Shown: positions 13,301-43,600, numbered from the stretch's first letter. The stretch: 64,000 nt of DNA from Euglena gracilis (GCA_039621445.1 CP154954.1:31458012-31522011), one strand, 5' to 3'. Program-made: numbers and translations. The notes: a model not told the origin generated them from the sequence alone.

Positions 13301-16300
13301 TTTTGGGAATCGAGAAAAACGATTTTCCAGCGCACATCTATGGGGCTCCGTCCTGGGCGGCTGAAGGGGTGGCTGTGGGCGTGCCTGATGGCGTGGTAGT
13401 TGGGGTTCCGGTGGGCGTCGCCGACGGTGTGGTGGTGGGCGTGCCAGTGGGAGTTGCCGAGGGCGTGCCCGTGGGCGTTGCCGACGGCGTGCCAGTGGGG
13501 GTGCCGGAGGGCGTCGCCGAGGGGGTACCGGTGGGGGTGCCAGAGGGTGTGGCGGACGGTGTGTTGGTGGGCGTGCCGGAATTGGGCGCTGCAAACTGCC
13601 GAAGTTTTGGCCACAATGGTCGTTGGTGCGCATCGATAAAGCGTTTTTATGCGTGGAATTTGTTCCGCTCAAACTCACACTGATGGAACTGAGTAGATCT
13701 TTGACGAGGTAGCCTGAATTTTTGACATTCAAAAATGTCAAACATTGCAAATAATGATGGAGGCCACATGAACTTGGCTTGTTGGCAGAAACGCGCATTG
13801 AAATACCTTTGGCTCCGCCGTTTACTTGCAGCCAGGGCGGCGCCTGACGAACCTCCCTCCCCACCCGAGTGCCCACCTCAAAGGCGGGAATAAAGCTGTT
13901 GGTTGAAGGGGTTGCAAATGGAAAAAAGCTGCTCTTAGGTGGCGCATCTCGCACTTCACACAGAGTCGGCTTGCTCCTTTGCACATTTGTGCAAAGGTGC
14001 CACTTTTTGGGAAATCCCAAAGTGGTGCCCATACCCGTAAAATGTGGTTGGGATGTAGTCTGGAACCCAGGACCACAAGGGAAATGCAAAGACTTCGAAC
14101 ATGAGGGTACCTTGGAGCAGGTGTCCCCACAGCATACAGGGCACGAACACCTCGCATGTGTGTTTGAGAACATCTTACGGCTGCCTCATGAACTTCACGA
14201 TGCCATACACTTTGACTTTCAAAAAAGAATTGTTGGTTACTTTGCACAAGTGCACAAAAGAACCACTTGCGCAAATGTGAACACAGGAATGTGCACACAG
14301 GAACCACTGTAACTGCCACAATGGTTTTTGCGCAGCTGCTGGAACGGACAGTTCACCTGGTTCACAAATGGTTCCTTCGTGCATTTGTGCAAATGAACAA
14401 ACAATGTTCCTTTTCGCATTTGCGCAAAATATTATTGTGCGATACCAGTTAGGAATAGGTGCAACAGAATTTGCTGCAATTATGCAAATACATCAACACG
14501 TTAGATTAGTGGAAATTGAGCATGGCAAAGGAACTGCCTTCCGGGCCCGAATTTGGGCTTCTGCAATTGAGCCTGTGAATAACCATTTCTGACCCTGAAG
14601 CATTAAAATAAACGGAACATAAGGTTTCACTGGTGGGAAAAAAATGGGTTGAAAAGTGCCCTTTACCCCTGGTCATTATGTCGAAAAGTGAGGTGCAGAA
14701 CATTGCTTGCGAATGGAACCGCTTGCTGACTGGGAAAAAAAATTGTGTCCAGGGAGGTTCAGGGGCGTGATGCAATACGTTGACATGATTTTCTGGCAAA
14801 CTCAGATATGCTGTGCAAACATCTCGACTTTGTGGACGCGCTGTTTCCACTGTCCTCCTGTCTCAGAAGACCACACTGTTAAGGCCTCGGCGATGAAGTT
14901 AGGAAAAATCACGGATGAACTGCTCCTTTGAGCAATTGCACAAAGGAAGCACTCAGGAAACACAGCAATGTTCATGGGGAGGGGGTCCAGCACCATCGGA
15001 ACACCTGAATGGTAATTATTTTCTAGCGCGAAAAAGGCAGGCATATGAGGTTGTTGGTTGCTTTTGAAAATGGTTCCTTTGCACATTTGTGCAAAAGAAC
15101 ACTGTTTTTTTTTGCTGCTATGCGAGTCTCACAGAATTTCAGTGTAAATGGGTTGATTTGGCCGACCTACCACAGAGCTGAAGTAGTAACCAGAAATTCC
15201 AGAGCTTTCTAACGTTCCGTTTCAACCTGCAAAACAAACTCCTTTCAAACCCACACGATGCTGCATGGCAAACAAAATGCAAGAAAAGGGGACCTTTCAC
15301 CCAGCCTCCAGACCACCTGGCAGTTGCCAGACAGGAAATGGGACCAGGGGTTTTTGGGGTTTTGAGTAATTTTGTGGAATCCATTGATCCTGGATATTAC
15401 CTCCCCCCCCCTTGTCTAAGAACCAGAAAAGATGGGTAAGAACCGGGGGGGTGGTGCTTCTTTTGCCAAAATATGGGTAAGAACCAGGGGGGTGGTGCTT
15501 ACACAAGGGGGAAAAATTTGACTGCAAAAAAAATCCGGCGCTTCGCGCCGAAAAGGAAAAATTCCCCTTAATTTGAAGGAGCACTGTTGAACTTACACAC
15601 ATTTGGATGCAGAAATCAACAATACCTCACCAAATCAGGTCTCAGAAGTTGCAGAAATTTCGAAATTTTTGAGAAATTTCCCTTAAAAATGCACACAAAA
15701 TAAAGCTCCCCGTGACGATGACCTGTAAAAAGATGGGTAAGAACCGGGGGGGGGTGCTTAGACAAGGGTGGTGCTTAGACAAGGGGGGGGGGGGAGGTAA
15801 CTCCAGGAAACAAGAACTATCACCATGTTTCGAAGGGTCAAAACATCAAATTTCAGACTTTCCCCTGGGCTTCACCCCCGAGAAATTGTGCAAATCTGCA
15901 CATACAGGGCCCTGTGAAACAGGCAATTCAAAAAATCAGGACCCCAACCCCCCAAATCAAAAAACGAGTTCCTTTGCACAAAAGCGCACAGGAACACGAC
16001 AAAATTTAAATGCTGGTAAGGAATAAAAACTTGCTTCATTCACTCAACGGGTGTCATCTGTCAAATGAACAAAAATTGCAAGTTTCCCCAAAGACTTTCA
16101 ATTAACCCCCCCCCACTCAAAGCATGGAGGGCGAATGGCTCACACAGACAGACCAGACCGTTGATTTCATATGGCGTGGTGCCCCCCTGAACAAAACCCG
16201 AGATCCACTGCCTAAGGGGTGAGGTTCCTTCCGGCTTAAGGGACGACCTGATTACAGATTAACTTTCTTCCCACAAAGAAGCCACGCAATGCATCCGACA

Positions 16301-19300
16301 CCTGGGGCAAGGTCGACACTTTTTCGGAGGGTCAAAAGACGGTCCTGGGACCACGAGAAGGAGATGGACATGTGCATTAAGCGCCGCAAGGTAAATTAAA
16401 GATGTGCATTTTGGAGACCTATACTGGGGGGGAATTTCGTGCCAGAGATATTCTGCGGCGACAAATTTCGCGGGCGACAAATTTCGCGGGATTCCTTAAA
16501 AATGTCTGGAAATATTTCGCGGGATTTTTTTTCTGTGAGTTTTTGGTTGAACATCGTGAACCATGAAAGATGGAGAGTGAAATGCATCCTCCAATGAATC
16601 AAGGGACTGGACACCTCCAGAACAACAAAAATCCTCAGGAAGCAGATGCCTTGTCCGAGAGGGTTCACCTAATGTTGAAAAACACTCAATATTCGCAGGA
16701 AAAATTTCGCGGGATTCCTTAAAAATGTCCGGAAATATTTCGTGGGATTTGCTTCCGCAAAATTTGTCTGGCAAATTTTCTCTAGGGCAAAATTCACCCC
16801 CCCCCGGAAGTACCCATCACAGGGCAGTGGGAGTCGAAATGACGTTGACGCTCCTTCACTTAACTGGCACAACCAAAAAAACGGAAGGATTTGCAGCGCC
16901 CGAAACAGATGGTGTGGCAGTCGGAGTCCCACTTGGCGTGGTAGTTGGGGTTCCGGTGGGCGTCGCCGACGGTGTGGTGGTGGGCGTGCCAGTGGGAGTT
17001 GCCGAGGGCGTGTCCGTGGGCGTTGCCGACGGCGTGCCAGTGGGGGTGCTGGAGGGCGTCGCCGAGGGGGTACCGGTGGGGGTGCCAGAGGGTGTGGCGG
17101 ACGGTGTGTCGGTGGGCGTGCCGGAAGGCGTGGCCGTGGGCGTGCCCGAGGGTGTGGCGGAGGGCGTGGACGTCGGTGTTTCAGATGGGGTGGCGGTGGG
17201 GGTACCGGACGGTGTGGCGGAGGGTGTGCCGGTGGGCGTGGCAGACGGCGTGGAGGACGGCGTCCCGGTCAGACCTCTCCTTAGTGTGTATCCTAGGTGC
17301 ACAGGGATACACAAAAAATTTTTTGGCGATACACAAGGATACACAAATTTTTTTTTGGTGATACACATGGATACACAAAATTTTTTTTGGCGATACACAG
17401 GATACACAAAAAAAAATTGGCGATACACAAAGAATACATGAATACACAAAAAATAATACAAAAAAGGACGGGTTGATCTGTTGACATCATTGCCGTAAAG
17501 TTGAGCGGACATTGGCCCCGGCTCAACCCGCAAAAGCGTGGCAGGGAATCTCACCCTGCTGCTGTGGTAGGGGGAGGGGCGCTACTCCCTCGCATGGCAA
17601 ATGCAGAGCCCCGGTACATTTGCACATGCCCATACCCCGGCTCACCTGTTTTTTGATTTTTTATTTTTTTTGACTTTGCATTTTTTTGATTTTTTTTTGC
17701 TTTTTAGAGTTTTTTTTGGCACTTGTCAGATGATCACACACATTTGGGATTGAAATTGTCAGTTGGATGTCGATCTAAGGACGCGTTTCTTGGCATCCTC
17801 CAATAACCTTCTCACACCAGGTGGAATGCCCAGACGACTCATGTCTTCCACGCTGAGAAATTGAATTGTTTCTTTGGTGTCAAACCCCTCATTCCGCAAT
17901 GAAGTTGCAAAACGGCCGAGAATCGGATTGTTGGTAACGAGATCTTGAAACCATGAGCAGGAATACAACGCACTGTCTGGGGGGACATTTTGTGGCTCCT
18001 CTTCTTTTTTTTGAGGGACGATTGGAGGAGGGTGAACTGTCACAGATGCAGCTGACGATGTTCCCTCCGAATGTTCATTCAAATAAGAAGAAGCGGAATC
18101 AGAATTTTCTGATGTACTCTCTGTGTCTCCATCACTCTCTGCATCAGAAGATGAAAACCCCTCCGAGGAGGAGTCCACCTCGTCAGCCCGGGAGGTCCGC
18201 AACTGCCTTTGGGCTGTCCTGCGGTCGCAGGAACCAGCCCACCGGCGAACTGCTTCCGCCACCAACTCCGCATCGGGACAGGTGCTGGTTCGCACCGCCA
18301 CCTCGTCGACGACGTGGTTCCTCGCAAGAGAAGAGCGCCGTGGATTGCAGACAAGCTTGACAATCGAGTTTAATACAGGTTGGCGTGTCACACTGTGGTA
18401 TCCTGTCAACAGAAGCATTTTGCGGCAGGCCATTTCCACAGAGAGCTGCCTGGGGCTTCCAATGGATGAACACACAATGGTGGCGGGTTAGAGGATGGCG
18501 GCGGGTTAGAAGCGGTGGTCAGAGAATCTGACAGATGAGAAACCTTGCAGCCCTCTCTGGAGTGCTTGTCAAAAAAAAAACTGGATGAAAGACCAAAAGA
18601 TGACGCCAACCTGGTTGAGTTGCTCGCAATGTGTTTGGCTGAGGGGAACCGTGCATTGGCAGAGATGGTTGTGAACCTTCATTCCCACTTTTAAGATTTT
18701 CATACATTTGGTCGCGCAATGCACAACCAACTCTGGGCACAATCGGCAAGCACATTCCAAAATCAATGCAAAAATATCTTCCATTGTAACACTGTGTAAC
18801 AAAAGTCATGGAAGATACTTTGGACGCTTGGTGATCTTTTCCTTGTGGACTGCAGGCTGCAAACTCCCAAGTCCGCACCACGTCAAGGGACCGGATTCGA
18901 CCCGATTTGGACCTGCTTGGGGGGAGCTCTTGACACAATTTTTTTGCCACTGAAATGAACGAAACGTAAGTAAAATGAACGAAACGTAAGTAAAATGAGG
19001 GGTCCGAACGAAAGAAACAAGTTGGGGGGGCACTTTCACCCGTGGTTGTGTAGCGGATGGTCAGAATGCGTAACGTTCAAATAACTTTCGAGTGTCGAGC
19101 AAAGCGAGGGGGGGGGGCGGCCCGAAGGGCACGCTTACCCCCACGAGGTGTGGCACGGTGCGGCGCACGGTGCAACGGTGCGGGCAACGGGGCAGCGGTC
19201 AGCCGCGTGCGTCTGCCGCATCACCAACGGGGGGAGGGGCTTTAGAGGCCCCGTACCACCCCCACCACCGCGGGTCTCCTCCACGATGCCTCCGCGGTGA

Positions 19301-22300
19301 AGGTCCGCGTATGTGTAAGTCGTGTGTTGTTGCAATGTGGCTGGGGGTCAAAAAAACAAACGGGGGGGTGTATTGGGATAGGTCGTCTCACAGCCCGTCT
19401 TGCCAAGGGTTGCGTTGCAACTCGAAAGTTGCACGGCAAGCCTTAACAAGCTCAAATGCACACACTCCCCTTTCTGATTTTTGGCTTTTTTGTTGTCCTT
19501 AAGGAACTTTCCGACTTTTTTTGAACGTCTTTTTTTTTTGACGTCTCTTAGAACCAAACCACCTTTGTGGTTTACCGCTTTTTTTTTTGTTGTTGCGCAA
19601 CTTTTTTTGTGGGTTTCCACCTCTTTATCCAACCGTTCGAACCACTTATTGATTGCCTTTGTGTGTGTTCGTGTGTCTTTCGATCTGTTACCCGCTGCAG
19701 ACGAGTACCAAAAATCAAAAGATCGAAAAAGAAAGCGACCCCGCAACCTGCGGGACCGATTCCCCACGAAACTTGGCGCCTTGAAAAAAAAAACTGAAAA
19801 AATCTGAGAAATGGAGAAAACCCCTGAATTCCTCACACGGAACCCTCCCGAATTCTCTTTTTGAAATACGCCATGAGGTCGATTTTCAAATTTGCCTCCT
19901 CGGCGTAAACAAAACATTCTCGGGCGTAACGATGGAAAAAATGCCCGATGGGTTCCCAAGTGTTATCCGATTCATCCCAACCCTTCCATTTCACAAGAAA
20001 TTGCCATTGTCCATTTGGACCTTTTCTATGTGAAATAATTTTTTCCACAACATATTGTCCGGGGGTAGCTTCCACATCCTCGGTTTCGCTTTGGTAAAAA
20101 TTCAATGGTAGGGGTTCTCCAACGAATTTGTCTTCCGCATGCAATTTCAATTGTGTGATGTGCACGCTTTGCATTATACCAGGTTTCACCTCAACCTGGT
20201 ATGAACCTTGACCCAAACGTCGTTTGACCTCACAAGGACCCAACCAACGGCTTTTCAAGTTTGCTTGCAAATTGGATGGACGCAAATACCAAACTTTCTG
20301 CCCAATGTCCAAAATTGGTTTTTCAGCCCTTTGAGAGTTCAAAGCCTCAAAACGTTGTAAATGAAGGGCGTTCAATTTTTCAGCAATTTTTGAATCCAAC
20401 TCGGACATTCTTTTGAAAAAATCTGAAGCTTCCTCCGCTTCGCGGGGAATGGGACGAGGAAAACCGGCCAATAGCATGTTTCGTCCAAAAACAATTTCGT
20501 AGGGGGATAAGCCACTTGGCCCAGGGATGTTATGAAATTTCCTCCTCACCAATGGCAAAATTTCAACCCAATTTGTGTCCATCTCGTCGCAAACTTTCCT
20601 TAGCCAAGTTTTGAATTCTTTTCCTTGCACTTCCGCCCTACCGTTGGCTTGATGGTGATACGCTTGCGCCTTTGCGCTTCGTATCCCCATGCAACCGCAC
20701 ATCGTGAGCCACCATGCCCCTGAAAATTGGGGGCCTTGGTCACTCGTGATGACCGTTGGCAAGCCAAATAAATCCAACCACCGATTAAACATTTCCTTGG
20801 CCACCGCCTTAGCCGTACACCCTTTTCTCCTATGGGGTGTTACTATTGTCCAACCGCTTAGGCGATCTACACAAACCGCCATGCAATCAAATTCTTGCCC
20901 GTCAAATTTTACACGGGGCATGTTAAAGAGGTCGATCGAAACACTTGACCCCAAAAATGGTGGTATGATGGTGGGACGCAAAGGCCCCTTCAAAGAAAAA
21001 CATGGGGGGCTGTGCGCTTGACAAATTTCGCACATTTTTGAAACCGACAAAGTGATTTCTTTTGCCCCCACCAAAGGTGAAAAATGAAAGTGTTTTGTCA
21101 TTTCCAACCACAACCTTTCCCCACCCACATGTCCCACGTGGGCGTGGTACTCCCGGACAAAAGGTCCAGTTACACCGGCGGGTACACACAAAAGTCCTTG
21201 GAAAAATAGCCGGTTGTCCAAAATTTGAAAATTTTCAGGCCAATTTTCCGAATGCGGTTTGTGTAACTCCTCCCAAATATCCTTAAAATACGCACACCGT
21301 GCATACAAAGTGGACCAATCCCGGTGCATCACAGGTTCCTTGGACAAATTTTCGTCCTCCCCCCCTTGATTTTCAGGGCCACCAAGGGGAAAATGCTGCC
21401 CGGGAAAGTTTTCCGTCTCCCCCCCTTCCTCCACTTCATTGCCCATGGTATCCACAGGGGAGATCATTTTTTCCAACACCGAAATCTGCCGTGAAAAATC
21501 AAAATCAACAACTTCACCGTTTTTGTGCAAGCGAACAACCATGCAAGCTCGTTCCATTTTTTTCTCATCGTTCATGCACCAGTGACATCAAGACCTTGAA
21601 CACCCGGAAAATGCAATTGCAACACTTGTAACTGCTTTGTGACCTCTGTGTGGTCAAATTTCAAATCAGATAATGGCCATGTCCGTCTGTCAAACACACT
21701 GGCACCCCACCCTGAAACCGTCTTGAATAACGTTGGAAGAACAGCCCATTGCGCTTGTGTGGAAAGTGAAAGAGTGGTCAAAATGGCAGCCCAACGCTCA
21801 TAAATAACCATGCCGCCCACCAGCAGAACACTTTGGCTTTTTTTCAACAGATTGCGTGCCTTTCGTTGTTGCTTATTTGGGAATTGGAATTCACCCAAGA
21901 ACACCTGGTATGCTTTCAAATTATTCAACCAAGCATGAGCCGCCGCGCGTTTCCAAAAGATGTACCTGTTTTTTTTGGACTCTTTTGAACTTCAACAAGC
22001 GTTTGCGCCCAACAGGCACCTGACCTTGGTTGATGTGATACCCCAAATCACGGGCAACCTTGCGCAGTGCGGCCCAGCGCTTCGTGGACACGCTGAACAG
22101 GCGAGCTGTCTTGGTGAGCAACGAGTTCAAGCGCTTCGCCGTGGCTCGCACCTGTTGGGCCTCCTGATCATCCCGGTCCGCTTTTGGAACAGCTGTGACA
22201 TCAAAATCAACACGCTGTGTTCTGTGGGAAGCACAATACCACTGGATTGCATTTGGCGCTTCTTGCTGAATATCCTTGTGCAATGCATGGAGCAAAACAG

Positions 22301-28300: not shown

Positions 28301-31300
28301 CAGTCTCCAGGGATCCTCACACGTCTGTGTTGGCCGAGGCTAAAATGCATCCGTGATTTTCCATGATTTTCCGTGATTTTCCGTGATTTTCCGTGATTTT
28401 CCTGTTTCCAGAAAAGGTCAAAAGCCACATTCCATTTTGCACCGGAACCATATTTAGGCGGTTGTGGCAGCAGTTCATTTCACCACATTATGGTCCTGGA
28501 GATCCCCCAGGGGATTTGCACCCCTGAGGCCTATGAGAGGACTCCCCGCCTCGCAGCAAGAAAAGAAAAGGCGAACAGTACCGGAGGCTAATGTCTGCCT
28601 TACTCCTTAAGCCTTGTGAAAGCGTTCCTCGACGTCCCCGTTATGAAACATGCAGATTGCTGCTTGCCTCAAACTTGATCCCATTCGCTGCCTGTTCCTT
28701 GTGTCACTCAGGCCTGAAAATGGAAATGGGAGGCATGGAAAGAAAAAAAAAACAGCTGCCAGAAAGGGTTTTCATATTTTTTCATATTTCCTCCTCGGTC
28801 CCACTTCCTCTTCTTTGCAGCCTTGGCACCACACCATTGCTTAGCGACCTCTGGGGGGAGGGGGGTCACTTTCCACTCTGGAAAAACCATGTTCTCATCG
28901 GACGATTTGGCACTGTCCAAAGACGATGAATCCCTCTCGTCATCTGACACACAAATGTCTTGTTTGGAAATTCATGGAAAAAAGTCCAAAAAAATTCAGG
29001 TGCCTTCGGCGCCAGGCCAGCCACTTTTCATTTTCGGGATTTGAAAAAACAAGTCAGTCACCCCTCTCTGGGGTGGGGTGGGACAGGTGTCAAGCAACGA
29101 TATGCTTGGCACCTTGCTGTGCCGTTGAACTGTCAGCATCCGGACATGAAAGCTCTGAATTGGACGACATTGTCTGTTTGGAAAAGCAGAGAATGTGCAA
29201 AGCATCCCATTAAAATGCATCTGCACAAACAAAGCACATTCAAAAAATCACCCAAAATTTTTTCCAAACCCTCCGCCTCATCCGTGAATTTCCGTGATTT
29301 TTCGTGATTTCCGTGAAAATGGCCTTCCGCCCATTTCCGTGATCCTCTGTGAATTTCCGTGAATTTCCTTTTCAGGACGTGCGAGGATCCCTGCAGTTTC
29401 CTGGAAACAATTTCCTGCCTTTGTGCTTGTGACCTGTCTGGAGAAGCATCCCGAGGGGGTGTCGGCATGCATCCTGCCATCCTCTGCTCTCATCAAGGAC
29501 CTAAAAAGGGGGTATGCACTACATAGCAGCCCCCTCCTCCACACATGCGTGTCAGTCCGTCTCATCCTGTCTGCAACATCAGGAGTGGCAAATCCTCAGT
29601 AGATTTCTACCCCTCCCCCTCCACCCGCCAGGATGAGGGATGGGAGACCTCCCCTTCCCAGGGCTGTACAGGAAGGTCTGGGGGGGGGGGTCAACCTGGC
29701 CACCACAGCACCGCCCATGGAAAAATTCCTTGGTGCCGAAGGAAATTTTTGACCAAAAAATCATCGTGCAGCCCACCCTCCACGCCATAACTTCTGATCG
29801 TCATCCCAGAGGGTCGTTATCTCGTTGTAAGTACAGGGACGACAATTTTTAGCAGACAAAAACCCTTCTGCAATTTCAAAGCGTGATATTATATATTATA
29901 TATAATATAATATATTTATATATTACATTTAACATATATTGGAAAGAAACTGCATACCTCCCCCGGGAAACTGTCTCCAGAGAAGCAGCGAGTACAGAGG
30001 TTGGAGACAGGTCTCCATGGGGACCAGTCAGCAAGCACAGAAGAGGACAGATTCCCAGGCAGGTCCAAGGTCAGAGGGACAACGTTGACATTTTGATGGC
30101 GATTAAAATCTAGAAAAATGATTCACATATTTGTGATCAGCAGCCTGGAAAAAAAATGTCCTTAGCTTTTTTCAACCCAGGAAATTACCGTTTTTTTTAA
30201 AAAAAAATAAATGCAAATAATTCTCAAGAAATTGTCAGGAAAGCGGGTCCAAAGGTATCCAGAAGGACAGGTAAGGGGACAGAGGGTTGAGGACAGTTTC
30301 CTGTTCCCAGGGGGGCAGGGGGAGGGGGTAATCTTCTTTCCTTGACATGTGAAGTGTTCGATGGCCAAATTATTTCAAGCCAACCATTGTGCTCAAATAA
30401 TGCTCAATTAGTTCAACTGAAACCACCAAAATTGGGGTTTGTGGTGTTCCCTGTGTGGTGTTTGTAGTGCTCCCTGTTACAAGGAGTGGTACACCCCCCC
30501 TCTGTCGTCTGTTCTTGACACGTCAAAATACGGGGGGAATGCAGTTGACAGGGGGGATGTCATGGACACGCTGTGTTATGTGCACTGGACAAAAAAGAAA
30601 ATGGCATTTTGGGTGCGGGAAAAGTGCGGTGCGGGGGGGGGGGTGGAATCAACCAAGAACCTTCCAACATAGCGACACGCCCGTGCTGGATCGCTGGACT
30701 CACAACAGGGGGGCAGCCCTGGACGTATCGGTGGGCGTGCCGGTTGGCGTGGAGGAGGGTGTGCCGGTTGGCGTGGAGGAGGGTGTGCCGGTGGGGGTGT
30801 CGGATGGCGTGCCGGTGGGGGTGCCGGACGGTGTGGCAGACGGCGTGGAGGAGGGCGTGCCGGTGGGGGTGGGGGCAGGGGCTGAGCTGGCACGACCATG
30901 GCAGCAGCCTCACGCTAGTGGGCCCCGGGGGGGCACCAGTATGAGGAGGTTGTCCATCCATGATCCAAAAAAGCGTGATATGCGTACTCCGGGAATCTCT
31001 GCCCAACGGGAGTGGTTTTTTTTGAATCTTTCGCTGAGGGTGAGAATTGACGCCGAGTTCAAGGCCGAAATGCCCAACCCCAACTCCTTTCCTCCGAATA
31101 TGAAATGCAAGGTGCGAGATGCAACTCGTGCCTGTCCACGCTCCGCGCTTGAAAAACGTCCAATACTCTTTAAGGGGGATGCAAGGGGACCACTAATATG
31201 AGGCTGCCAGCATGGCTTCCAATCAGCCCATCGCTGCAAATGTCGGTGGATGCATCTCATTTGTTGCCATTAAAGGCTGTATGGGAAGGCCATGAGGGGG

Positions 31301-34300
31301 GGGGGGGGGCAACACCCCCTCCACCGACAATGTCACCACGCAAAAAAAAAAGATTCACCAACATAAATCCAAAAAATATGGGAAGGTGGTCGCTCGAGCT
31401 CCTGGAAAAATGGGAAGCTGGTCGTGGGATGGGGGCCACACCCCACCAGACAAACCCGTCAGTGATGTGGGGGGCTTGCCGCCTGTCCCAACCACCCAGA
31501 AGGCGCCTGGGATTCCCACCAGGCTGTTTTTTTTTACCAACCCGGGGGGGTCCGGAGTGCCTTGGGGTGCCTTCCCAGGCAAGCCCTGCCCGCCCCCCTG
31601 GGGGGTCGGATTTTGACCTGTGCCCAGGCACATTCCTTTGAAAAATAGGCCATTTTTGGCTCCCTGGCGCCTTTGGCGCCGGGGTCTGTGCTAAGGCACT
31701 TTTGGCCGTGTGCCTTACCCCCCCCCCCCCGGCCGGGGTTGGCACCCGACTAAAATACAGCCTGATTCCCATCCAGCCACAGTTCAGGGGGCAAGTGTTT
31801 GGGGAGTGTTTGGGGCTTCAAGCTCCCGGTGCAGTCACAAATTTGAGCCCAGTACCGTGTATGACAAGGGCTGTACGGGAAGGCCTGGTGGGGGGAGGTC
31901 GACCCCCCCACCACCCACCAACCAAAGGGTTTCGAGTGTTTTTGCAGCGCCACCTGTTGTGCCTGAGCAAGGGCATCTGCCTACGGCGGGCCTGGGCCAG
32001 CAGTTTGGGAAGCCGGACGGCCCAGGTGTGTGCACACGACGGACAAGCCAGCGTGCGCATGATGGGTTGAGAGGGAAAAACGCGAGGAGCAAAAAAAAGG
32101 CAGAGGCAGAAAATATGAGGGGCAGCTGAGGCAGTTTCAATGCAGATTCACCCTCAGCCTCTCCTCCCCCCAGAGGATTGAGGTGCCACTTTCTCGTGGA
32201 CCATTTTTGCAGGTCAAGTGTATTAACCGGCGCTCACCGTCACGCACGGCTCAGCCCTGGGCAGCAGAGGGCGTGGCCGTGGTGGAGGCGGTGGGAGTGG
32301 CGGATGGAGTGCCCGAAGGGGTGGCCGACGGCGTCGTGGTGGGTGTTCCGGTTGGCGTGGTGGACGGTGTGCCGGTGGCCGTCGCGGACGGCGTGCCGGT
32401 GGGGGTGCCAGATGGCGTGGCGGAGGGTGAGTGCGTCGTCGTGGCGGAGGGTGTGGCGGGAGTAGGCGGCGGGGAGGTAGCCCAGAAATATGAATGAATG
32501 TGAGAAACTTATTTACCCCCCCCGGACAGGGTTGGATGGGAAGCCTTGAGGGGGGGGGGGGGGTCGGACCCCCCCCCCTCCTACCTCGAAACTGAGGAGG
32601 GGCCGAAATTTTTTCGATTTCATGGACGGGCAAAGGGCCGGAAATCGGGTCGAAATCGGTCAAAAATCCCTGATTTTTCTTTGAAAATCGATCCAGAAAT
32701 GCTCATTTTTTTTGAAATTTTTTGAACATTTTTTTTGGGAAAAATACCAACACATCAAAAAATGAGCAATATGGCCAAAAGTCAGCAAAAGGGGTGTTTT
32801 TGCTCATTTTCCGGCGCACAGCGCCGAAAGAAAATTTTCTGCTATTTTTGGCACCTGTCAAGGAGGGGGGGTCCGGACCCCCCCCTCCCAACATCTAGGG
32901 GGGGGGGGTGGTCCGGTCCCCCCCTACCACCTTACCCCCCTAGGGGGGGGGGGGGGTCGGGACCCCCCCCCTACCACCTACCTCAATACCGAAGGGCTTC
33001 CCGTCCAACCCTGCCCCTGGGGCATTGACCTGACAAGTCAGCGAGTACGGGCGCGAGAGATTATCCAGAGTCAAAAATATTTTCCAGAAAAAAATCAAAA
33101 ATCTCTGGGGAGAAAAACGCAAAAAAAAAATGCAAAAACTTAGGAGGAGGCTCTGGAGCCTCTTGAAATGTCGTTTGAGGTTGGAGGAAGCTCAACAGCC
33201 TCCTCAAATGTTGTTCGAGGGGGCCCTTACTTTGAGGAGGAGTATCCAGGACCCCCCAAATCTCAAATTTTCTTCCCAAACTTCCGTCCAACATTTTTTG
33301 TACTTAGGACAAATTTCCGCCCAAAGAAGTGCCTGGAATGGCATTTTGGGCCGATTGGGGGAAACTTTTCCAGCCTGGCTCTTCGCGCCTGAAAAAGAAG
33401 GTCCTCTGGTCCCACCTGCCCTTCGTTGAACCCTGCCCCACCCCTTCCCCAAGGGAAGTCGACCGCCCACCCACCCAACCCCACCCAAAATCAACCGAAA
33501 CCCCCAAAAGACATTTTCCGGCCCAGCTTTCGGTCGTGCTGGACTGATCCATGGGGTCCCCCAAAGCCTGGGGACAGGGGCCCGCAACCACCCACCCACT
33601 CTTGAAAACCGAAACCTCCCAGGGGAGGGGTTACGCAAGAGTTAAAAGAACGAATCTACCATCGCATGTTCTTGAAGTCTATGTTCTGGGAATGACAAGT
33701 AGGTGTCAATGGCATTTGTGTTTTGGACGGGGGGGGAGGGCGGGCAGCAATCCTGCAAATTGGACAGTGGCAAACTATCCATTTCCATCGAACAAGTTGG
33801 CTGGAGGGGGGACCTTGATTGGTGTTTTGACTACTCAAAGAGTACCACAGGCCAGACAACTTCCCCGGCACGGAGGTTTCCAAAGCGGAGGTAGGAAAGG
33901 ATGCCAATAATAAAAAATGCAAAATTGGGGAAGGTTGGGGTATTCATGAGCAAACATACATTATCATATCTCAAATAGAAATTGGGGGGCAAGGTGTGCA
34001 TGTTTCGAGCGGGAAGAAATGTTGGGCGGAAAAAAGGGTGTTGAGGAAGTGTGCACTTGCGTGGCTGGCCCTCTGCGCCACCTAAACAGAAGGGGTGCCC
34101 GAAGGCGTGGCTGTTGGGGTGGCGGTCGAGGTACCGGATGCAGTGGCAGTCGGCGTGCCGCTGGGGGTGGGCGCAGGGGCAAAGCAGCAAATACCACACC
34201 ACACGGCGCTTTTGTGGGTGCAGCATGCTCAGAACCGGATCTGGACCTATTCGCGCCACTGCAGAACCTCGAAGGCGTGGAGCAAAGTCGGACGCACAGA

Positions 34301-34525
34301 CAGGAGTGGTCTTGACACCGGCCCATTCTGATCCCGAAGAAGAACCCCCTCCCCAAAGTTTTGGCTCCTTGGGGGTCTTAAACAGTGGGACATAGAAGTC
34401 TGAGTGCGGTTTGTGTGTGTGTGGCTGCTGTCTGAACCATTGCCTGTGGCATTGTATTTTACTCCAATTGTCCTCAGGGCTCAAAGCTGACTCAATGCGA
34501 TGCACGCACTCACGCACGCACGCAT

Positions 34526-34580
<55 letters not shown>

Positions 34581-37500
34581 CTCACTCGCATGCATGCCTG
34601 TAAACTTGCATGAGTGAGTGAGTGTACACTTGCATACACATTCACTCATTCACACGCATGCATGCACAGGCATGATCGCGCACACACATGCGCACACGCA
34701 CACAGCATTGCCCTGGGCGTTGGACGGCGTCCCTGTGGGTGTTCCGGTTGGCGTGCCGGAGGGGGTGCTGGTGGCTGTCACAGACGGTGTGCTGGAGGGG
34801 GTGCCAGAAGGCGTGGCGGTCGGGGTCGCCGTGGAGGAGGCGGTGGGCGTGCTGCTTGGCGTGGGGGAGGGTGGGGCCTGGAGCGGGAGTCCGGTACCGC
34901 TGTGCCCCGGGGTTGATCAGGCATCTTTTTGAGGCCCGTGGCGCGGGGGGGGGGGGGGCACCCACCCGGCCCAGACCCACCCCGAGGGTGGGGGAGCGGC
35001 GGAGACCCTAGAAAATCTGGCTGTCTAAAATCATTTCGAAAAAAAAATTCGGTGCTTTGCGCTGAAACCCAGGTGCGGGCCTCTGGCCCGGGACCGCCTA
35101 GGGGGGGGTCTGGCCCCAGATCCTCCCCCCTCCCCTGGAGGGGAGTCTTCTGAGTTAAAAAGAATCCTGGCTGGAATACCCCAGGGGGAGGGAACAATGA
35201 AAAAAAATTATTTTTCCAGAAATCATGCACGATTGCGCGGTAATTATACGGGATCATGCGGGAACACACAGGGGGGAAAAAAGCGGTGGTGATGACATGT
35301 GGGATGATGGGAAATGATGCAAAAGAATGGGGGATTGAACTGCATGACACTACCCGCGCTTTAAGAACACATGTTTTGCCTCCCAGGTGGAACCCCCCCC
35401 CCCCAACAAATAATGAACGCAACCCCTGAGGACCAACCTTGACAGCCTAAATAATAGCCCTCCCTGTGAGCCAAACGAAAAAGAATCACAGAGGTCACCA
35501 GAGACATGGAAAATAACAAAAATCAAAAAGTGGGTGGGAATTACAAAAAGAAATGCACCCATTGCACACACAAAAAAAGTCCGAAGAACCAAAGCAAGAG
35601 GGGACCAGGCCTGCCAGGCCTAGTGCAACTTTTTGGGGTCAATTCTTGACCTCAAAAATTACGCAAGATCCTGAGGGATAATGCAGACAGCAGGGCTTGC
35701 ACAGGATGGTGATCTCTTTTGCCCTTGCTGTTCCTTTTTGAATTTTGAGGTTTTAAAATTCAAGCTGTTCTTAAGACCAAACCATTTATAATCCCAGCAG
35801 TGGAGAGGTGATCCCTGGGGGGTGGCCCTTGGGCAAACCAAAACATAATATTAAAAAAACAAAAACCTCAAAACAAAAAATACTTCTCCACGTGCCAGGG
35901 TGTGGCAGTTGCGGTGTGGGTGGTGGTGCTGGTGGGGGTGGAGGTCGGGGTGCTGGATGGCGTGGCGGTAGGGGTCGCAGTGTCGGTTTCCGAGGCGGTG
36001 CCTGTAGCGGAGGGGGTGGCGGAGGGGGTGGCGGAGGGGGTAGTGGTAGGGGTGCTGGAGGCGGTGGCGGTGCGGGTGGAGCTGGCTGTCGGTGTCGCGG
36101 TGCCGGTTGACAGCTGGGGCCCATTCAATGGTTTGCCCAGATGGACGGGGAAATTGTGGGTGGGTCATTCTCAACCTGCACCTTGCAGGGTCGCAGGCCA
36201 ACACGTGATAAAAACCCACATAATCTGTGCTGGGTTGGAGCTTGCCAGAAGAGGTGGCCAGCAACCGAATCGTCTCAAATCATCTGAGAAAAAATGAATA
36301 GGGCCCATGTCGAGGTTCTGGTCGTGGTCGGGGTGGAAGTATCGGTGGCATACAACTGCTTACCGACCCCCGGGGGGGGGGGGGAGGGGGGGTCACTCCA
36401 CTTTTTTAAAAACCAGTCAGTCACTCGTTTTCAAAAAACCAGCCAGTCACTACCCCCCCCCCCGGGGAGTGGGGGGTCGGCCACTCAGAAAAACGGCCAC
36501 TTTCCAGTCACTTTAGGCCATTTTAGGCCCAAAAAACTTTTCCGGCACCTTCGGTGCCGGGGTCACTCAAGCAACTTTTGCCCACTCCTGGCCGACCCCC
36601 CCCCGGGGGGGGAGGGGGTCCGGGCCAAAAACCAGTCAGTCACTTTGAAAAAACCAGTCACCCACCCCCCCCCGGGGGGGGGGGGGGGTCGGTCAGTGCT
36701 TAAGCAATTGCCTGATCGGTGGCGGTGCGGGTGGGGCTGGCAGTGGGGGTGGGGGTGGGCGACGGGGTGAAGGTGGGGATGACGGTCAGGGTGCCACTGG
36801 CGGTGGGGGTGTCCGTCTCCGAGACCGTGTCGGTCTCCGTGGGGCTGGCCGTGGAGGTCGCAGTCCGGGTCGGGGTTCTGGTGGGCGTGGCGGTGGCCGT
36901 CGGTGTGCCTGTGGAGGTGATGGTGGCGCTGGGAGTTTGGGTCGGGATGACAGTGGCGGTTTGGGTGCTGGTGGAGGTGGCCGAGAGAGAGGCCGTCCCC
37001 GTAAAAGTACGTGTTGGGGTTGGGGTTGCGGTCTCAGTGGCAGTTGCTTCCGCAACCCACCTTCTTCCCCCAGGGGGAGGGGGGTTTAGTCAGCTGTGGA
37101 TGCAAAGCCATTGAGCAAACAATGCAAATTTTCCGGGGACCACCCCAATGCTTTCCCCAGGGACCACCATTTCAGGACGCAACAATTTGATTGCTGCATT
37201 TTTTAATTAGTTTTGTATGTGATTGCACCATTTCATCACACAGAAAGCATTTAATTTATGGCCAAAAAAAAACAAATTCAGAAGATTGAAATCCTTGCTT
37301 CTCCAATAGTTTGTAATATTAGTTGCCAAACCATGATCCCAAGGGAGGTCTTTGAATGAGTGGGGTGCACATTTGCCTTTTCAATGAAGAAGAAAACTCT
37401 ACAATTCTATTTGAAAACACAAATTCCAAAATGTAATAAAAATCAGAAAACCATCTGTGTTTTCAGAGCAGAGATTTTTTGATTTTCTCGGTATAATATA

Positions 37501-40500
37501 CTCCTGCCAAATATTAACGCCAGAGTCATTAGAATCCTGCCCAAAGAAAACACAGAACGCCGAATCTCCCCTCCTGTTTGGTTTGAAGGCAAGAAAGAGG
37601 GGGTGCTCATTTGGCCAAAAATATCAACAGCAAAAACGGAATAAACCTGGGGGCTCAGACAAGGGGAATCTGAATAAAAAAAAAACCTTCAATTTTTGCC
37701 GAAAAAAATTCCATTTTTGGGGATCCTTTTGGGGGGGAATTGCTGACATTATACGTTGGCTTCACTTTCAGTGTAAATTTTTATAATTTGAATTTGTTGA
37801 AAACAAAATCAAATTAAATTTTGGGTTTTTATAATTTAACTGTCCAAAGAGTGAAAAGAGCCTAACCCCCCCCCTTCTAAACCCCCAATTATAACCCCCC
37901 CCCCTGGGCCGACCAACCAAACCTTGACTTACAAGAGGAAGAAAAATGAAAACCGCCAAAGACGATTTTTTTCGGCCGCAAACCACCCAAAAACTGATTT
38001 TTTGGCAATTTATTCGAGACCAACCATCATCAAAAATACCATTTTTGACCATATTTGCCGAAAATTGGAGACATGGCGTAAAGTGGAGCCCCCACAGTAC
38101 CCCACAGTACCCCACAGTACCCCACACACCCCCCCACACACCCCCCCACACACCCCCCCACACACCCCCCCCACACATCCCCCCACACACCCCCCCACAC
38201 ACCCCCCCACACACCCCCCCCCCCCCCCCCACCCCCCCCCCCACACACCCCAACACACCCACCCCCACAACCCCCCCCACACACCCCCACACGCATACCC
38301 CCCCACACACCCCCCCACACCCCCAACACAACCCCCCACAACCCCACAACACCCCCACCCCCCCCCCACCCCACCACCCCCCACCCCCCCCCACCCACCC
38401 CCCCACACCCCCCCCCACACTCATGTTGACTGTGCGCAACTGTTCGGGTGTCATTTTTTTGACTTACTCGGCCTTCGGCCTCGTCGCGCCGCGGCCTTCG
38501 GCCGCGGCACGGGGGGGGGGGGGGGGGCGGCCCCCCCCCCCCCCCCCCCCGGACCCCCCCCCCCAGAACCAAAATAACATTATACCTTGTGTGTGCAAGG
38601 CAACGGAAAGAAAATCCACTTTGTTGGATTACAGTACCATGGGTGAGCAACAGCCTGATTCTTTTTTGAAACCCAAGTTGAATGCGCGACTGTTCGGGTG
38701 TCATTTTTTTTGACTTACTCGGCCTTCGGCCTCGTCGCGCCGCGGCCTTCGGCCGCGGCCCGGGGGGGGGGGGGGGGGCCCGCCCCCCCCCAAGCACACC
38801 CCCCAGAACCAAAATAACATTATCCCTTGTGTGTGCAAGGCAACGGAAAGAAAATCCATTTTCCTCAGATTTGGCACCCCCCACACACCCCACTCACACC
38901 CCCCCACACTACCCCCCCACCCCCCCCCTTCCACTCCCCCCCCCCCACACACCCCCCCACACCCCCCCCACACACCCCCCCACACACCCCCCCACACCCC
39001 CCCCACCCACCCCCCCCACCCCCCCCCACACATACCCCCCACAGTACCCCACACTTAAGTGTGGGGGCTCCACTTTATGCCATATGTCAAAAATTGCCAA
39101 TCTGGGGGGGGCTGAGGTCATTTTTGTGGGTCGAATTTTCACCAAAAATTCCTTGACTTATAAACCCCCAGACTTGTGACCAAACCAGATCCTATAAACC
39201 CCGGGGGGTTTATAAGTGGGGGGGTTGATTTTTAATATTTTTGTGCTCCTTTTGTTGAGAGACAAATTATCAATTCCTTCTGGTCAAATTTTATGAAAGA
39301 TTCCTATAAAAATAGATATGAGTATGCAAATATATTGATATATGGATATAGATATATAGTCACATGTGATACATATAGAAGATGTACCTCCTGGCCACCC
39401 CCTCCCGGTTAGGGGGTGACCTGAGGTTCTGGCACTGACCGTGGACGTTTTTCTCAGTGTCACCTTTTCTGACTTCCCTGCAGCGTCCCCGCAATGTCCG
39501 TGGTGGGTCGTGGAGTGCTTCTCCCTCCGCGATCTGGCGCATGTTCTCTCTCACCTGCATGGCACCACCTCCCTTGAGGTGTCTTACAGGTTCCATGTCC
39601 CAGTTGTTTGCGCCCGACCCTCCACCACGTGGACGGGGCCCAAGACAGTGGCAGTCGGCCGCAGCTAGCTTCCGGAACATGAGCTGCATGCCCGCTCACT
39701 GGGCAGCATGCAGTTTTCGCATGCCGTTTCGCCCCAAGCCGCTATGCGGGTCGGAGCACAGGAGGCCTGATTTGCAACCTGCGCGTGAACGATCTGCTAC
39801 GTGATCTGGTCGCGCGGTCAGGAGGAGGTTGGCCAGTTGATCCAGTGCAGGCAGTGGCAGCTGATGCATCCACCTTCACCAGGGCACCCCTGCCATGGGA
39901 GATGTTCTGCTCCTCCGGGATGGCGACCATGCAGCAAAAGTGGTGGATGAGACGGAGCTGGGCCGGCAGGCGCCGAACATAAGCGGTCCATCCACCGCCA
40001 TGGCCTGCTGACTGTCCGAGAGGGGCAGCGACGCTCGTACACACTCTTCGGGGCCATCCTGGATGGCGAGGCGCAGTGCTTCTGCCAACTCCCACGGTGC
40101 CACCAGACGGTAGGGCACTGCTGTGGGGTGTTCACGCGTACGAGGCGCTGTGCAGCCTTCAACATACAATCTCCAAAACCTGGCTCTGAAATCCTGGCTC
40201 CGCGCCAAAGGCAGCATTCTGGCGGTGGCACCGACCTGACTATGTCAGGGAATACAAATGGTTTGTGAACATTCGCGGCGATGACGGCTTCCTCCAGGAG
40301 CTGGGGGCCATCCGCTGGGCCAGCATGCAGGACTGACCCAACTGCCACCACCACACTTACTAGCCGGACACCATCCTAGCATCTCTTAGGGCTGTGAAGG
40401 CGGCATATCCTGTTCACCAGTCAGCATTCACGGTCAGTGCCAGAGGTTTAACCTTAGGAACCCCTGGCCGGGGGGGGGGGGGGGGGGGCCAGGTGGTACC

Positions 40501-40619
40501 TGTTGCAAACAGACAGACAGGCAGGCAGGCAGGCAGGCAGATACAAGGCAGGCAGACCAGACAGACAGACAGACAGACAGACAGACGGACGGACGGACGG
40601 ATGGACGGACGGACGGACG

Positions 40620-40650
<31 letters not shown>

Positions 40651-43600
40651 AGACAGACAGACGGACGGACGGGCGGGCGGACAAACAGACAGGCAGGCAG
40701 ACAGAGAGACGTGTATGTAAGTATGCATGTAGGCAGGTATGTATGTAGGCAGGTAGGGAGGTAGGTGGGTAGGAAGGTAGGTAGGTAGGTAGGTAGGTAG
40801 GTAGGTAGGTAGGTAGGTAGGTAGGTGGGTAGGTAGGTAGGTAGGTAGGTAGGTAGGAAGGTAAGTAGGTAGGTAGGAAGGAAGGAAGGAAGGAAGGTAG
40901 GTAAGGTAGGTAGGTGGGTGGGTAGGTAGGTAGGTAGGAAGGTAGGTAGGTAGAAGGAAGGAAGGTAGGTAGGTAGGTACGTAAGGAGGCAGGTAAGAAA
41001 GAAGGTGGGTAGGCAGGTATGTAGGTAGGTAGGGAGGGAGGGAGGTAATAGGGTGGGTGGATAGGAAGGTAAACCCCCAACCCAACCCTCAACCCTCCAA
41101 ATAACACCCCCCGGTGTGTTATTTGTTATTCGAACTGCGGCCCAGGGGGGGGGGGGGTGTTATTTGGGGGGGTATTTTTACATGGAACACCAAAAGAAAA
41201 CAGGGGGTGTGCTATTTAGGCACTCAAAATCGGCCCCCGAGGGGGGGTGTTGTTTGGGAGGGTGTTATTTGGGGGGGGGGGTTAGGCAGGTAGGTAGGTA
41301 GGCAGGTAAGCAGGCAGGCAGGTAGGGTTATATTCAGTAGTAAATCGGGAGGGGGTCATATTTGGGGAGGATATATTCGGGGGACGTTGCTGGAATTTAG
41401 AAGTAGCAGCAGGATTCTGGAGGCCCCCCTCCTGGGGGGAGGCCTTTGAATTTCCAGGGGGGGGGGGTATGGCGGCACCGGGGTCCGACTTCGGGGGAGA
41501 TCGGGTTATTGTTCGGGATAGGGCTAGGGTTACAACAGAATTTAGGCTGAATTTTGGTAAAATTCCGACAAAAGCGCACCCTAAGAGTCTTCCGAAGCAG
41601 GGACCTAACTTGCGACCTAACTCTGCCCTAAATAAGGCTGATTCTCGGCGTGCCGATCCTAACCCTGACCCTATTCCTAAAAATAAAGTGCCAATCATGA
41701 ATGTTTTCACAGAATGATTTGGGGGGCTTAAAAGTGGAGGGTTAGGTTTTGGGGGTTGTTTGAGAGGGACATAAAATGGCAAATCGCAATCTTCGCAACA
41801 ACTCGCAACCTTCAATAACGGCTCACTTTACTGGGAGAATCCCGTAGAAAAAGTGAGCAGCGGTCATGGAGGTGGTGGAGGTGATGGAGCTGCTCCGGGT
41901 GAACGTCCGGGTTGGGGTGGGTGTGGCAGTAGAGGAGCTTGTGATGCTGGTGGTCGTGGTGGGGCTGGCGGTGGCGGTCGTCGTGGACGTGATGGTGGCG
42001 CTGCGGGTGCGCGTGCCCGTGGAGGTCGCGGTGGTGGTGGGGGTGGCTGTAACTGTGGACGTGATGGTGGCGGTGCGGGTGGGGGTGCGTGTGCCTGTGG
42101 GTGTCGCAGTGGCGGTCGAGGTGGCAGTTGTTGTGGACGTTATGGTGGCAGTGCGGGTGCGGGTGGAGGTGCAGGTAGGAGTCGCCGTATTTGAGCGTGT
42201 CATGGTGGTGCTGGGGGTGCTGGTGGTGGTGCTGGTAGGAGTCGCTGTCAGAGGGTTTTTTTGAGATAGGAGAGTTGGTTACCATCTGTCCACCCCCCTG
42301 GAGAGGGGAAGTGTGCTCCAGGGATGTATGGGAAATCCTGAGATCGCCTCCTAACACAGACTGGGGGGGGGGGTCGGACACCCCTCCTATCCAGGGCGTT
42401 GCTTAAGGACCCCCGTGGGGGTTCACCTCAAGCTCAGAGGCTGGAAAATTTGGGCTTTTCTTTTTCTGAAATTTTTGTTATATATTACTTCTCATGTGAA
42501 AAAAAAACGTCCAAAAAATGTGCTTAAATGTGGGGGGAAACAGATTTTTGCAGAAGAAAAATTTTATCCATTTTTAGACCAAATGCACCCCTCCCAACCC
42601 ACACCCACACCACCTCCCTCAATGCTGACGGGCTTCCCAAACATCGCTGGGGGACCCAGTGAGGGGGTAAAAAGGTGGGGTCCAACCCCCTCCCAGTATC
42701 CAAAAGTTAAAAAGGTCTCTGGTCGCCGTATCTGAGGCCGTGAGGGTGGAACTGGGGGTGGTGGTGGAGGTTCGGGTGGGGGTCGCCGTCGTGGTGGGGG
42801 TGGCGGTCGACGTGGCACTTATGGTGGCGCTGCGGGTGAACGTGCCGGTTCTGGTGAAGGTGGCCGTCGTGGTGGGGGACGCCGTTGCGGTGGCGGTGGT
42901 GGTGGAGCTCGGGGTGAGCGTGCTCGTTCGAGTGGGGGTTGCCGTTCCGGTGGGGGTTGCTGTGGAGCTTGAGGTGGCGGTTGCCGTGGGGGTTATGGTA
43001 GCACTGCGGGTGAACGTGCGCGTCCTTGTGGGAGTGGCCGTGGCCGTGGTGGTGGACGTTCTGGTTCTGGTGGTGGTGGCACTGCAGGTGGACGTCCTGG
43101 TTCGGGTGGAGGTTGTGGTTGCAGTTGGGGTGGCGGTCGTTGTGGCTGTTAGGGTGGACGTCCGGCTGCGGGTGGAGGTGCTGGTCGGGGACGCCGTTCT
43201 TGGAGGCAGGGCCGGAGCCGCACCGTTCCGCAACTCGAAAATAGGAAGAAGCAACCCCCTCCTTCAGCTTGATCCTACAAACTGGGGGTTGGGAAATGGG
43301 GGGGAGGGGGTCACAACAGCAGGGTCCAAAGAGAAAAGCAACTCCCCGCTGACAGAACGAGCGTCCATCACATAAGCACCCTTCTGCAGGAAACTCAACC
43401 AGTCATTCAATGGAGACAAGACAATTTGTGGTTGCAGCTGACCTGAAAAAGCAAACTCCAGCATAAAAACAAAGCAAAGCGTCACATTTTCTCTCGACAT
43501 TTTTTTGCTCAAAAAAGCGCTGGCTCATACAGAATGAAGCAGCCAAAAAAAAAAGATACGCAATGTCCAGAACATGCCCCCCCAGCTAAAGGATCGATCC

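Follow-up and report, generated by a model that had tools for sequence, protein, structure and literature searches.

Three introns with paired but uncommon clamp triplets

Introns 1 to 3 of this study lie on the minus strand of a 64,000-nt stretch of Euglena gracilis DNA (GCA_039621445.1 CP154954.1:31458012-31522011, the window hereafter), where they separate four blocks that translate as Thr-X repeats, and they are very probably euglenid nonconventional introns with minority clamp triplets. The clamp is the triplet at +4 to +6 that pairs with the triplet at -8 to -6, and it is TAG/CTA in intron 1, CTG/CAG in intron 2 and CGC/GCG in intron 3, instead of the CAG/CTG of the majority class. Removal from RNA is seen directly for intron 1, through the point at which a contig departs from the genome for intron 2, and at the 3' junction only for intron 3. 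All coordinates are given in Table 1.

The original prediction, made from the sequence alone, had proposed the termini of these introns, and we find them in place on the minus strand. Intron 1 extends from GTT-TAG-GTGGCG to CGCCGC-CTA-CTCCC^G (with ^ marking the cut), intron 2 from ACC-CTG-GCACGTGGAG to CTCCCGCTC-CAG-GCCCC^A, and intron 3 from GAC-CGC-TGCTCACTTTT to GAAGGTGGGTT-GCG-GAAGC^A. All these introns have 3/3 pairs between the triplets at +4 to +6 and -8 to -6, and outside the paired triplet they leave spacers of 3 nt on the 5' side and 5 nt on the 3' side, as the original prediction described. The junctions follow a pyrimidine^purine pattern (Y^R...Y^R) at 12/12 positions over the three introns, with a purine opening each downstream exon. 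The Thr-X frame is likewise kept across all of them, as had been claimed, and the phase of the repeat is also continuous, for example at intron 1, which is a slightly better argument than the open frame.

Conventional spliceosomal features, that is, GT/GC-AG borders, a C-rich pyrimidine tract and a 5' end complementary to U1 (using the consensus in the available part of PMC11170887), are lacking in introns 1 to 3. GT/GC-AG borders fail at every compatible cut position, the border dinucleotides being GT..CC or TT..CG in intron 1, GA..GC in intron 3, and non-GT-AG at all 7 slide positions of intron 2. The three are not GT-AG introns.

Junctions in RNA-type contigs

Four sequencing runs were compared with positions 30300-38080 of the window: X1 and X5, which are contigs from two studies, X20, which apparently consists of DNA contigs, and X21, which consists of raw RNA reads. 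In nine unique intronic bins (33160-33939, 34200-34459, 34980-35759 and 37320-37839) the depth of X1 and X5 is zero and that of X20 is 16.7-189, and in exon bins X1 and X5 have depths of 2.8 to 27; both runs therefore behave as RNA. The tables of joints and loose ends were dominated by X20 (15/333 joints and 24/1182 loose ends listed), and reliance was placed on contig pieces and on from_end values, for the latter, three other pieces (35958/35920, 36006/35976 and 36086/36110) served to establish that the count is inclusive and runs to where the aligned piece ends.

For intron 1, X5 record 17 (293 nt, 0 differences) aligns in pieces of 133, 82 and 78 nt (34851 to 34719, 34168 to 34087 and 32456 to 32379), thereby joining three exons over intron 1 and a neighboring canonical intron, B; X1 record 1 is of equal length, and its first two pieces are identical. 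The joint is thus directly seen, and the placement chosen by the aligner, 34087^32456, is a 1-nt slide of the same mRNA that arises because the first base of the intron and that of the next exon are both G. Among the slide positions, only the placement of the original prediction yields a 3-nt spacer, a 5-nt spacer and a downstream purine. A DNA contig (X20 record 11) continues through 34087, and RNA depth is zero over 33160-33939.

The contig informative on intron 2, X1 record 2 (155 nt), follows the genome from 36005 to 35897 and then leaves it with 46 nt remaining. The first five bases of the intron, ACCCT, equal the first five of the next exon, which predicts a departure at 35902 - 5 = 35897, as seen; a five-base extension of this kind has a chance probability of about 1 in 1000. 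RNA depth is zero in three bins of this intron (34980-35759). For intron 3, the X1 and X5 contigs over 37036-37045 stop aligning at 37045 (from_end values of 10 at 37036 and 4 at 37042), where the first exon base had been predicted for this nonslidable junction, and RNA depth, which is 22-27 in 36800-37059, drops to 0-0.2 in 37060-37319. Toward the cDNA check proposed with the original prediction, these presumed RNA contigs contribute a direct joint for intron 1, the departure point for intron 2 and the 3' end of intron 3, the 5' side of the last being placed by the pairing and frame arguments given below. A joint from 35940 to 36964 (side 20) in X1 and X5 was rejected as repeat induced, with CCACCAGCACC common to both flanks.

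Pairing strength and register

With junctions fixed by RNA, the register that leaves 3 and 5 nt outside the helix ranks 1st, 2nd and 3rd among 88 registers for introns 1, 2 and 3, respectively, and in intron 1 a run of nine contiguous pairs opens right at +4/-6. The 22-nt ends form duplexes with energies of -24.2, -17.2 and -21.1 kcal/mol for introns 1, 2 and 3 (null mean, -8.3), and 1.4%, 6.5% and 2.6% of random end pairs from the same region (n = 3000) do as well. Despite a possible extra C-G pair at +3/-5 (register 2,4), introns 2 and 3 are still cut 3 and 5 nt from the triplet, and the intron 2 contig rules out a cut shifted to the outer pair. The proposal that the machinery measures from a stem end therefore stands in part: the cuts do lie 3 and 5 nt outside the pairing, and sensitivity to spacer length is published (PMC12501133), but since the possible outer pair leaves the cuts unmoved, the ruler is not simply the outermost possible base pair.

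Neighboring nonconventional introns in the same gene

The canonical CAG/CTG introns A and B occur in the same contigs and gene as introns 1 to 3, at RNA-supported junctions. Both form 5 strict-register pairs followed by a bulge, with bulged-helix energies of -23.5 and -18.0. Introns C and D, which flank a micro-exon, have one mismatch each in the clamp triplet (ATG/CAG and CAG/ATG). X5 record 19 aligns from 36975 to 36715, continues with 29 unaligned nt and resumes from 36108 to 35920, and these 29 nt equal a 32-nt micro-exon minus a 3-nt GAT slide, which fits a micro-exon at 36312-36343; X1 records 3-4 reach 36110 and extend 6 further letters. The clamps of the 7 introns with RNA support are accordingly 2 CAG/CTG, 1 CTG/CAG, 1 TAG/CTA, 1 CGC/GCG and 2 mismatched.

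Intron D consists almost wholly of a very high-copy G/C-palindrome repeat (X20 depth of about 5x10^5 in 36280-36799), which fits the proposed MITE-like origin of nonconventional introns, MITEs being miniature inverted-repeat transposable elements. More generally, G/C-homopolymer-palindrome repeats within introns (31340-33159 and 36280-36799) reach summed X20 depths of 10^4 to 5x10^5 and also occur in RNA-type contigs. A blastn search of 80-nt intron ends against the window returned no second copy for 12/14 ends, and the two ends of intron D match only the G/C-palindrome repeat of the window. Elsewhere on the minus strand, a candidate intron recognized from its sequence alone (13579-16904, TTC-GGG-CGCTGCAAA ... 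TTTGCAGCG-CCC-AATTC^C) has a perfect 12-bp terminal helix with a GGG/CCC clamp and is in frame, but it has pyrimidines at the usual purine positions.

Published rules and known systems

The available parts of Milanowski 2016, covering 55 introns, describe positions +4, +5, +6 and -8, -7, -6 as the most conserved element, with CAG/CTG in 33/55 introns and other triplets that retain pairing in 22/55, so that complementarity, rather than sequence, is conserved; a purine opens the intron in 51/55 cases and the next exon in 55/55, and a pyrimidine closes the exon in 49/55 and the intron in 49/55 (PMC4770533). The knock-ins of Nomura 2025 reveal stricter demands, since single changes in CAG or CTG abolish splicing, including CAG>TAG and CTG>CTA, the 5' spacer must be exactly 3 nt, with 5-6 nt tolerated on the 3' side, the next exon should begin with a purine, and a helix beyond the triplet is required (PMC12501133). 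CGG-CCG, CGG-CTG and CTG-CAG were all functional there, CTG-CAG being the sole second-position complementary swap that was spliced (PMC12501133). The resulting code, N3-CDG ... CH'G-N5-6^R, which asks for C, non-C and G at +4, +5 and +6 and for C, the complement and G at -8, -7 and -6, covers 61.2% of nonconventional introns (PMC12501133). Among 649,158 introns of E. agilis, 4018 are CTG-CAG and 187,325 unclassified (PMC12501133 Dataset S8), with 40,569 of the unclassified introns being nonslidable (PMC12501133 Dataset S7). Intron 2 conforms to this code, intron 1 departs from it at +4/-6, and intron 3 departs from it at +6/-8.

Introns 1 to 3 resemble the CAG/CTG majority class (Tessier, Canaday, Milanowski 2014/2016, Nomura 2025) in their non-GT-AG borders, triplet pairing and 3/5 spacers, and also share with it the downstream purine, the Y^R pattern, a terminal helix that draws the two intron ends together and, through introns A and B, transcripts. 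Intron 2 is identical in configuration (N3, N5 and purine) to the CTG-CAG minority class of E. agilis (PMC12501133), no difference being detected, and is an ordinary case of this known, experimentally functional variant. Introns 1 and 3, which have full complementarity and long helices after the triplet, belong to the large unclassified group; like the unclassified E. agilis introns (187,325/649,158) and the 22/55 of Milanowski 2016, they lack C-D-G/C-H'-G and keep the pairing, the comparison being one of classes and not triplet by triplet. Intron 1 also recalls the intermediate euglenid introns in having a 5' GT together with a nonconventional helix, though its 3' end is CC and not AG, and a 5' GT in such introns is attributed to purine preference and not to spliceosomal ancestry in the available text of Milanowski 2016 (PMC4770533).

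Bulge-helix-bulge introns of tRNA and archaeal genes also have structure-defined cut sites, and the analogy was drawn both in the accessible part of Milanowski 2014 (PMC3935182) and in the original prediction. Their two 3-nt bulges around a 4-bp helix differ from the duplexes predicted for introns 1 to 3, which consist of one basal helix with 3-nt and 5-nt tails, and the available part of PMC6221363 likewise describes the nonconventional intron fold as unlike that of tRNA introns. MITE-derived introns and introners are similar in their terminal inverted repeats, in their high-copy repeat content and in direct repeats at the junctions that resemble target site duplications (5 nt, ACCCT, in intron 2 and 9 nt in intron D), and are unlike introns 1 to 3 in that the window holds no transposase and no family-level copies of the intron ends.

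The 5' junction and contents of intron 3

With the 3' junction of intron 3 fixed, 14,914 upstream positions were scanned for partners of its 14-nt 3' arm, G-U pairs being allowed. At least 11/14 pairs were found at 166 positions and 13/14 at 5, among which 41865 has the top count of Watson-Crick pairs (9), tied with 39691. Only 41865, however, adjoins the end of a Thr-X frame with both frame and x-T dipeptide phase preserved and T^G at the junction. Pairing, frame and the Y^R pattern together make 41865 the probable 5' boundary of the intron. A metagenome scan for this 5' junction with NNN at +4 to +6 gave 0 matches. An alternative CGG/CTG reading of intron 3 (cut after TTTTT, 3' end CTG-CCACT^G) was discarded because of poor pairing, a frame shift and conflict with the contig end at 37045.

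Long low-complexity arrays lie at 38.1-38.4 kb and 40.5-41.05 kb in intron 3. The region 40509-41047 contains microsatellites, (ACAG)n of about 200 nt and (GTAG)n of about 320 nt, and an insert of about 1 kb (38065-39091), bounded by 32-nt inverted repeats that are 88% complementary, includes a tandem duplication of 250 bp along with arrays of CCCCACAC. At 37036, 37042 and 36976-36993, X1, X5 and X20 show a single allele, and it is not that of the window. In addition, the sole X20 DNA contig at this place has C>T at 37051 on the plus strand (30.5 of 30.5 depth), which changes the -6 G of intron 3 to A and GCG to GCA. The RNA contig of the 37036/37042-variant allele, whose DNA contig carries -6 G>A, still ends at 37045, and this strain allele may be in line with a geometric requirement.

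Weighing the evidence

Several points weigh against the reading of introns 1 to 3 as nonconventional introns with minority clamps. The RNA status of X1 and X5 is presumed and not on record; the 41866^37045 joint was not seen, its 41865 side falling outside the compared stretch; and the contigs at 37036-37045, with A>T at 37036 and A>G at 37042, stem from an allele or paralogue that has diverged from the allele of the window. The raw RNA run X21 comprises 463 reads, 459 of them only partly on the stretch (mostly with poly-G ends), and neither joints that could be used nor information on the strand came from it. The low-complexity exons are open in every one of the three minus-strand frames, so that frame conservation alone is weak evidence. 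Stems of 9-10/12 pairs appear in every exon gap when boundaries are left free (+/-60 nt, frame required), and such a search fails to rank the RNA-verified introns B and 2 first; stems alone are therefore no evidence, and the structural argument needed junction data. Finally, TAG/CTA and CGC/GCG break the genetically defined code N3-CDG/CH'G-N5-6.

The joined contigs might not reflect splicing at all but intron-less paralogues or alleles, or de Bruijn mis-joins of Thr-codon repeats, given that the exons are low-complexity, that the false joint from 35940 to 36964 is present in X1 and X5, and that diverged copies are expressed (X5 record 19 with 9 differences, X1 records 3 and 7 with 6-8). Loose ends at 30872 and 35920, moreover, lead to >255 nt that are absent from the window (20-mers, 0 matches with up to 2 mismatches), indicating a diverged expressed paralogue or allele of the Thr-rich family elsewhere. 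We nevertheless consider such an origin very improbable: X5 record 17 matches three exons without a difference over its three pieces, canonical intron B, which this contig also spans, has junctions in exact agreement with the N3/N5 rule, no such joint occurs in the DNA run X20 among the 15/333 joints listed, and X20 record 11 crosses 34087. As for intron 3, its 5' end could be misplaced, the exon at 37045 being joined to a different site, within the 4.8 kb or close to 41865, and CGC/GCG being paired by coincidence, as would be compatible with a 5' junction outside 30300-38080 and with the promiscuous pairing of the G-rich 3' arm, for which 39691 scores as well as 41865. This is improbable in view of the unique position of 41865 at a Thr-X frame end with matching frame, x-T phase and Y^R, and of the interior of the intron, where 0/7 ORFs have a Pfam match and the minus strand of 37065-41853 holds no Thr-rich block. 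A spliceosomal GT-AG intron at 37047-41831 (GTAAAG...GGAAG) could be drawn from the GT at 41831-41830 and the AG at 37048-37047 on the minus strand; we give it hardly any credence, as RNA contig alignments end at 37045 and not 37046, the 3' end is purine rich with no pyrimidine tract, the shifted frame stops at about 36786 inside an exon that is RNA-covered to 36718, and the conventional 5' consensus of E. gracilis is GTGTG in the available part of PMC11170887.

A further alternative grants that introns 1 and 3 are removed, but by a different or less efficient route, sequence still being of importance and only the unusually long helices allowing them to be tolerated, in which case they would be uninformative on the main machinery. 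The published code, which demands a C at +4 with a G at -6 and under which single changes abolish splicing (PMC12501133), speaks for it, as do the strict-register pairs, 9 contiguous in intron 1 and 13/14 in intron 3 versus 5 before the bulge in introns A and B. Spacers, Y^R pattern and transcripts are, however, the same as those of the canonical neighbors, and the bulged helices of A and B are strong too, with no clear trade-off among the 7 introns, so that we regard a separate route as rather unlikely.

Genomic setting

The window is moderate-GC eukaryotic DNA, rich in G/C homopolymer palindromes and microsatellites; by the anatomy of its introns it is probably euglenid nuclear DNA, most likely from Euglena. 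Translation of the minus strand gives Thr-X and TP(S/T)(A/G) repeats in 19 blocks between about 2 kb and 44 kb, and the region is in all likelihood part of a long minus-strand nuclear gene for a Thr/Pro/Ser-rich repeat protein, interrupted by nonconventional introns. Rfam gave 0 matches over the whole window and Pfam 0 families on two Thr-rich exons, and a homologous-protein search with exon 36718-37044 found no match at E<=0.001 among 8000 scored candidates.

Three near-identical exons of 127-129 aa rich in Thr/Pro/Ser (2032-2418, 5296-5676 and 8535-8915, minus strand, spaced by about 3.2 kb) and two 75-aa exons (10025-10249 and 11738-11962, minus strand) appear to point to tandem duplication of exon-intron units. 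Among these copies, one 3' clamp is GTG versus CTG in its paralogues. A 584-aa open frame at 19836-21587 (minus strand), in a gap of about 7.7 kb between the Thr-rich exons at 24927 and 17272, shows a chromodomain (E = 4e-13) and an integrase core that is under the Pfam cut-off (E = 1e-6), and is probably the remnant of a Ty3/gypsy-type chromovirus.

Table 1. Introns, helix arms and exons of the Thr-rich gene (positions in the window)
Feature	Coordinates	Strand	Basis and remarks
Intron 1, 1630 nt, TAG/CTA	32458..34087	-	joint seen in X5 record 17; slidable +1
Intron 1, 5' helix arm (+4..+12)	34076..34084	-	9 contiguous pairs, one G-U
Intron 1, 3' helix arm (-6..-14)	32463..32471	-	pairing register analysis
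Intron 2, 1029 nt, CTG/CAG	34873..35901	-	departure of X1 record 2 at 35897; slidable -1..+5
Intron 2, 5' helix arm (+4..+16)	35886..35898	-	pairing register and duplex energy
Intron 2, 3' helix arm (-6..-17)	34878..34889	-	pairing register and duplex energy
Intron 3, 4820 nt, CGC/GCG	37046..41865	-	3' junction, X1/X5 contigs; 5' junction from pairing, frame and Y^R; not slidable
Intron 3, 5' helix arm (+4..+17)	41849..41862	-	pairing and duplex energy
Intron 3, 3' helix arm (-6..-19)	37051..37064	-	pairing with 5' arm
Canonical intron A, GCC-CAG...CTG-CCCCC^A	30871..32262	-	X5 record 16 leaves genome at 32263; 3' end inferred
Canonical intron B, GCC-CAG...CTG-CGCCC^A, internal control	34169..34718	-	joint 34719^34168 in X1 record 1 and X5 record 17
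Intron C, GAC-ATG...CAG-CTGTC^A	36109..36311	-	contig pieces ending 36108-36110, 2-nt slide; duplex -20.2 kcal/mol
Intron D, GAT-CAG...ATG-CCACC^G	36344..36717	-	29 unaligned nt of X5 record 19; 9-nt direct repeat at junctions
Thr-rich exon upstream of intron 3	41866..42243	-	Thr-X frame; edge at ~42243 from CAG/CTG candidate intron 42244-42724; outside RNA-compared stretch
Thr-rich exon	36718..37045	-	X5 record 19 aligned 36975 to 36715; X1 records 5-7 also over exon
Micro-exon, 32 nt	36312..36343	-	29 unaligned nt in X5 record 19; X1 records 3-4; Thr-X frame
Thr-rich exon	35902..36108	-	X1 records 2-4 and X5 record 19
Thr-rich exon	34719..34872	-	X1 record 1 and X5 record 17, both over 34851 to 34719
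Thr-rich exon, 81 nt	34088..34168	-	RNA-type contig pieces
Thr-rich exon	32263..32457	-	X5 records 16 and 17

Implications for intron recognition

We know of no enzyme or machinery that has been identified as removing euglenid nonconventional introns, which Guminska in 2021 reportedly found to be excised as full-length circles. The machinery would recognize the helix formed by the two intron ends, with +4 to +6 paired to -8 to -6, and would cut at a distance from it, 3 nt upstream at the 5' end and 5 nt, in some cases 6, downstream at the 3' end, so that the next exon opens with a purine; the same machinery would presumably act on introns 1 to 3. That structure and not sequence defines the splice sites, as had been proposed, is true insofar as the triplets pair in all three introns and the helix is needed in knock-ins. 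Compensatory, the word used for the termini in the original prediction, applies to their pairing; descent from a CAG/CTG ancestor by paired substitutions would be a hypothesis. The claim is overstated in view of the sequence constraints of Nomura 2025, where single changes abolish splicing and CTG-CAG is the sole working second-position swap (PMC12501133). A tRNA-splicing-like endonuclease followed by a ligase is already postulated in the available part of Milanowski 2014 (PMC3935182). With the principle of complementarity over sequence in print since 2016 and the idea of nuclease plus ligase since 2014, the three introns are new instances of known biology.

At the outermost clamp pair, intron 1 departs from the code naturally in both bases at once, with U-A for C-G, and is nevertheless removed, which amounts to a natural form of compensatory rescue, though on another backbone and with an unusually long following helix; in intron 3 the whole clamp triplet is replaced. 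If the ordinary machinery removes introns 1 and 3 efficiently, it is conceivable, and we suggest it tentatively, that C at +4 and G at -6 would be not a base-specific contact but one geometric solution, which a long uninterrupted helix relaxes. Whether bases or geometry are read narrows the candidates for the enzyme, a sequence-reading ribonucleoprotein on the one hand and a structure-measuring nuclease plus ligase on the other. Introns 1 to 3 add RNA-supported natural cases to this question, with introns 1 and 3 outside the only genetically defined code; they contribute examples, not a concept, and introns of the unclassified kind already run to hundreds of thousands in the genome of a relative.

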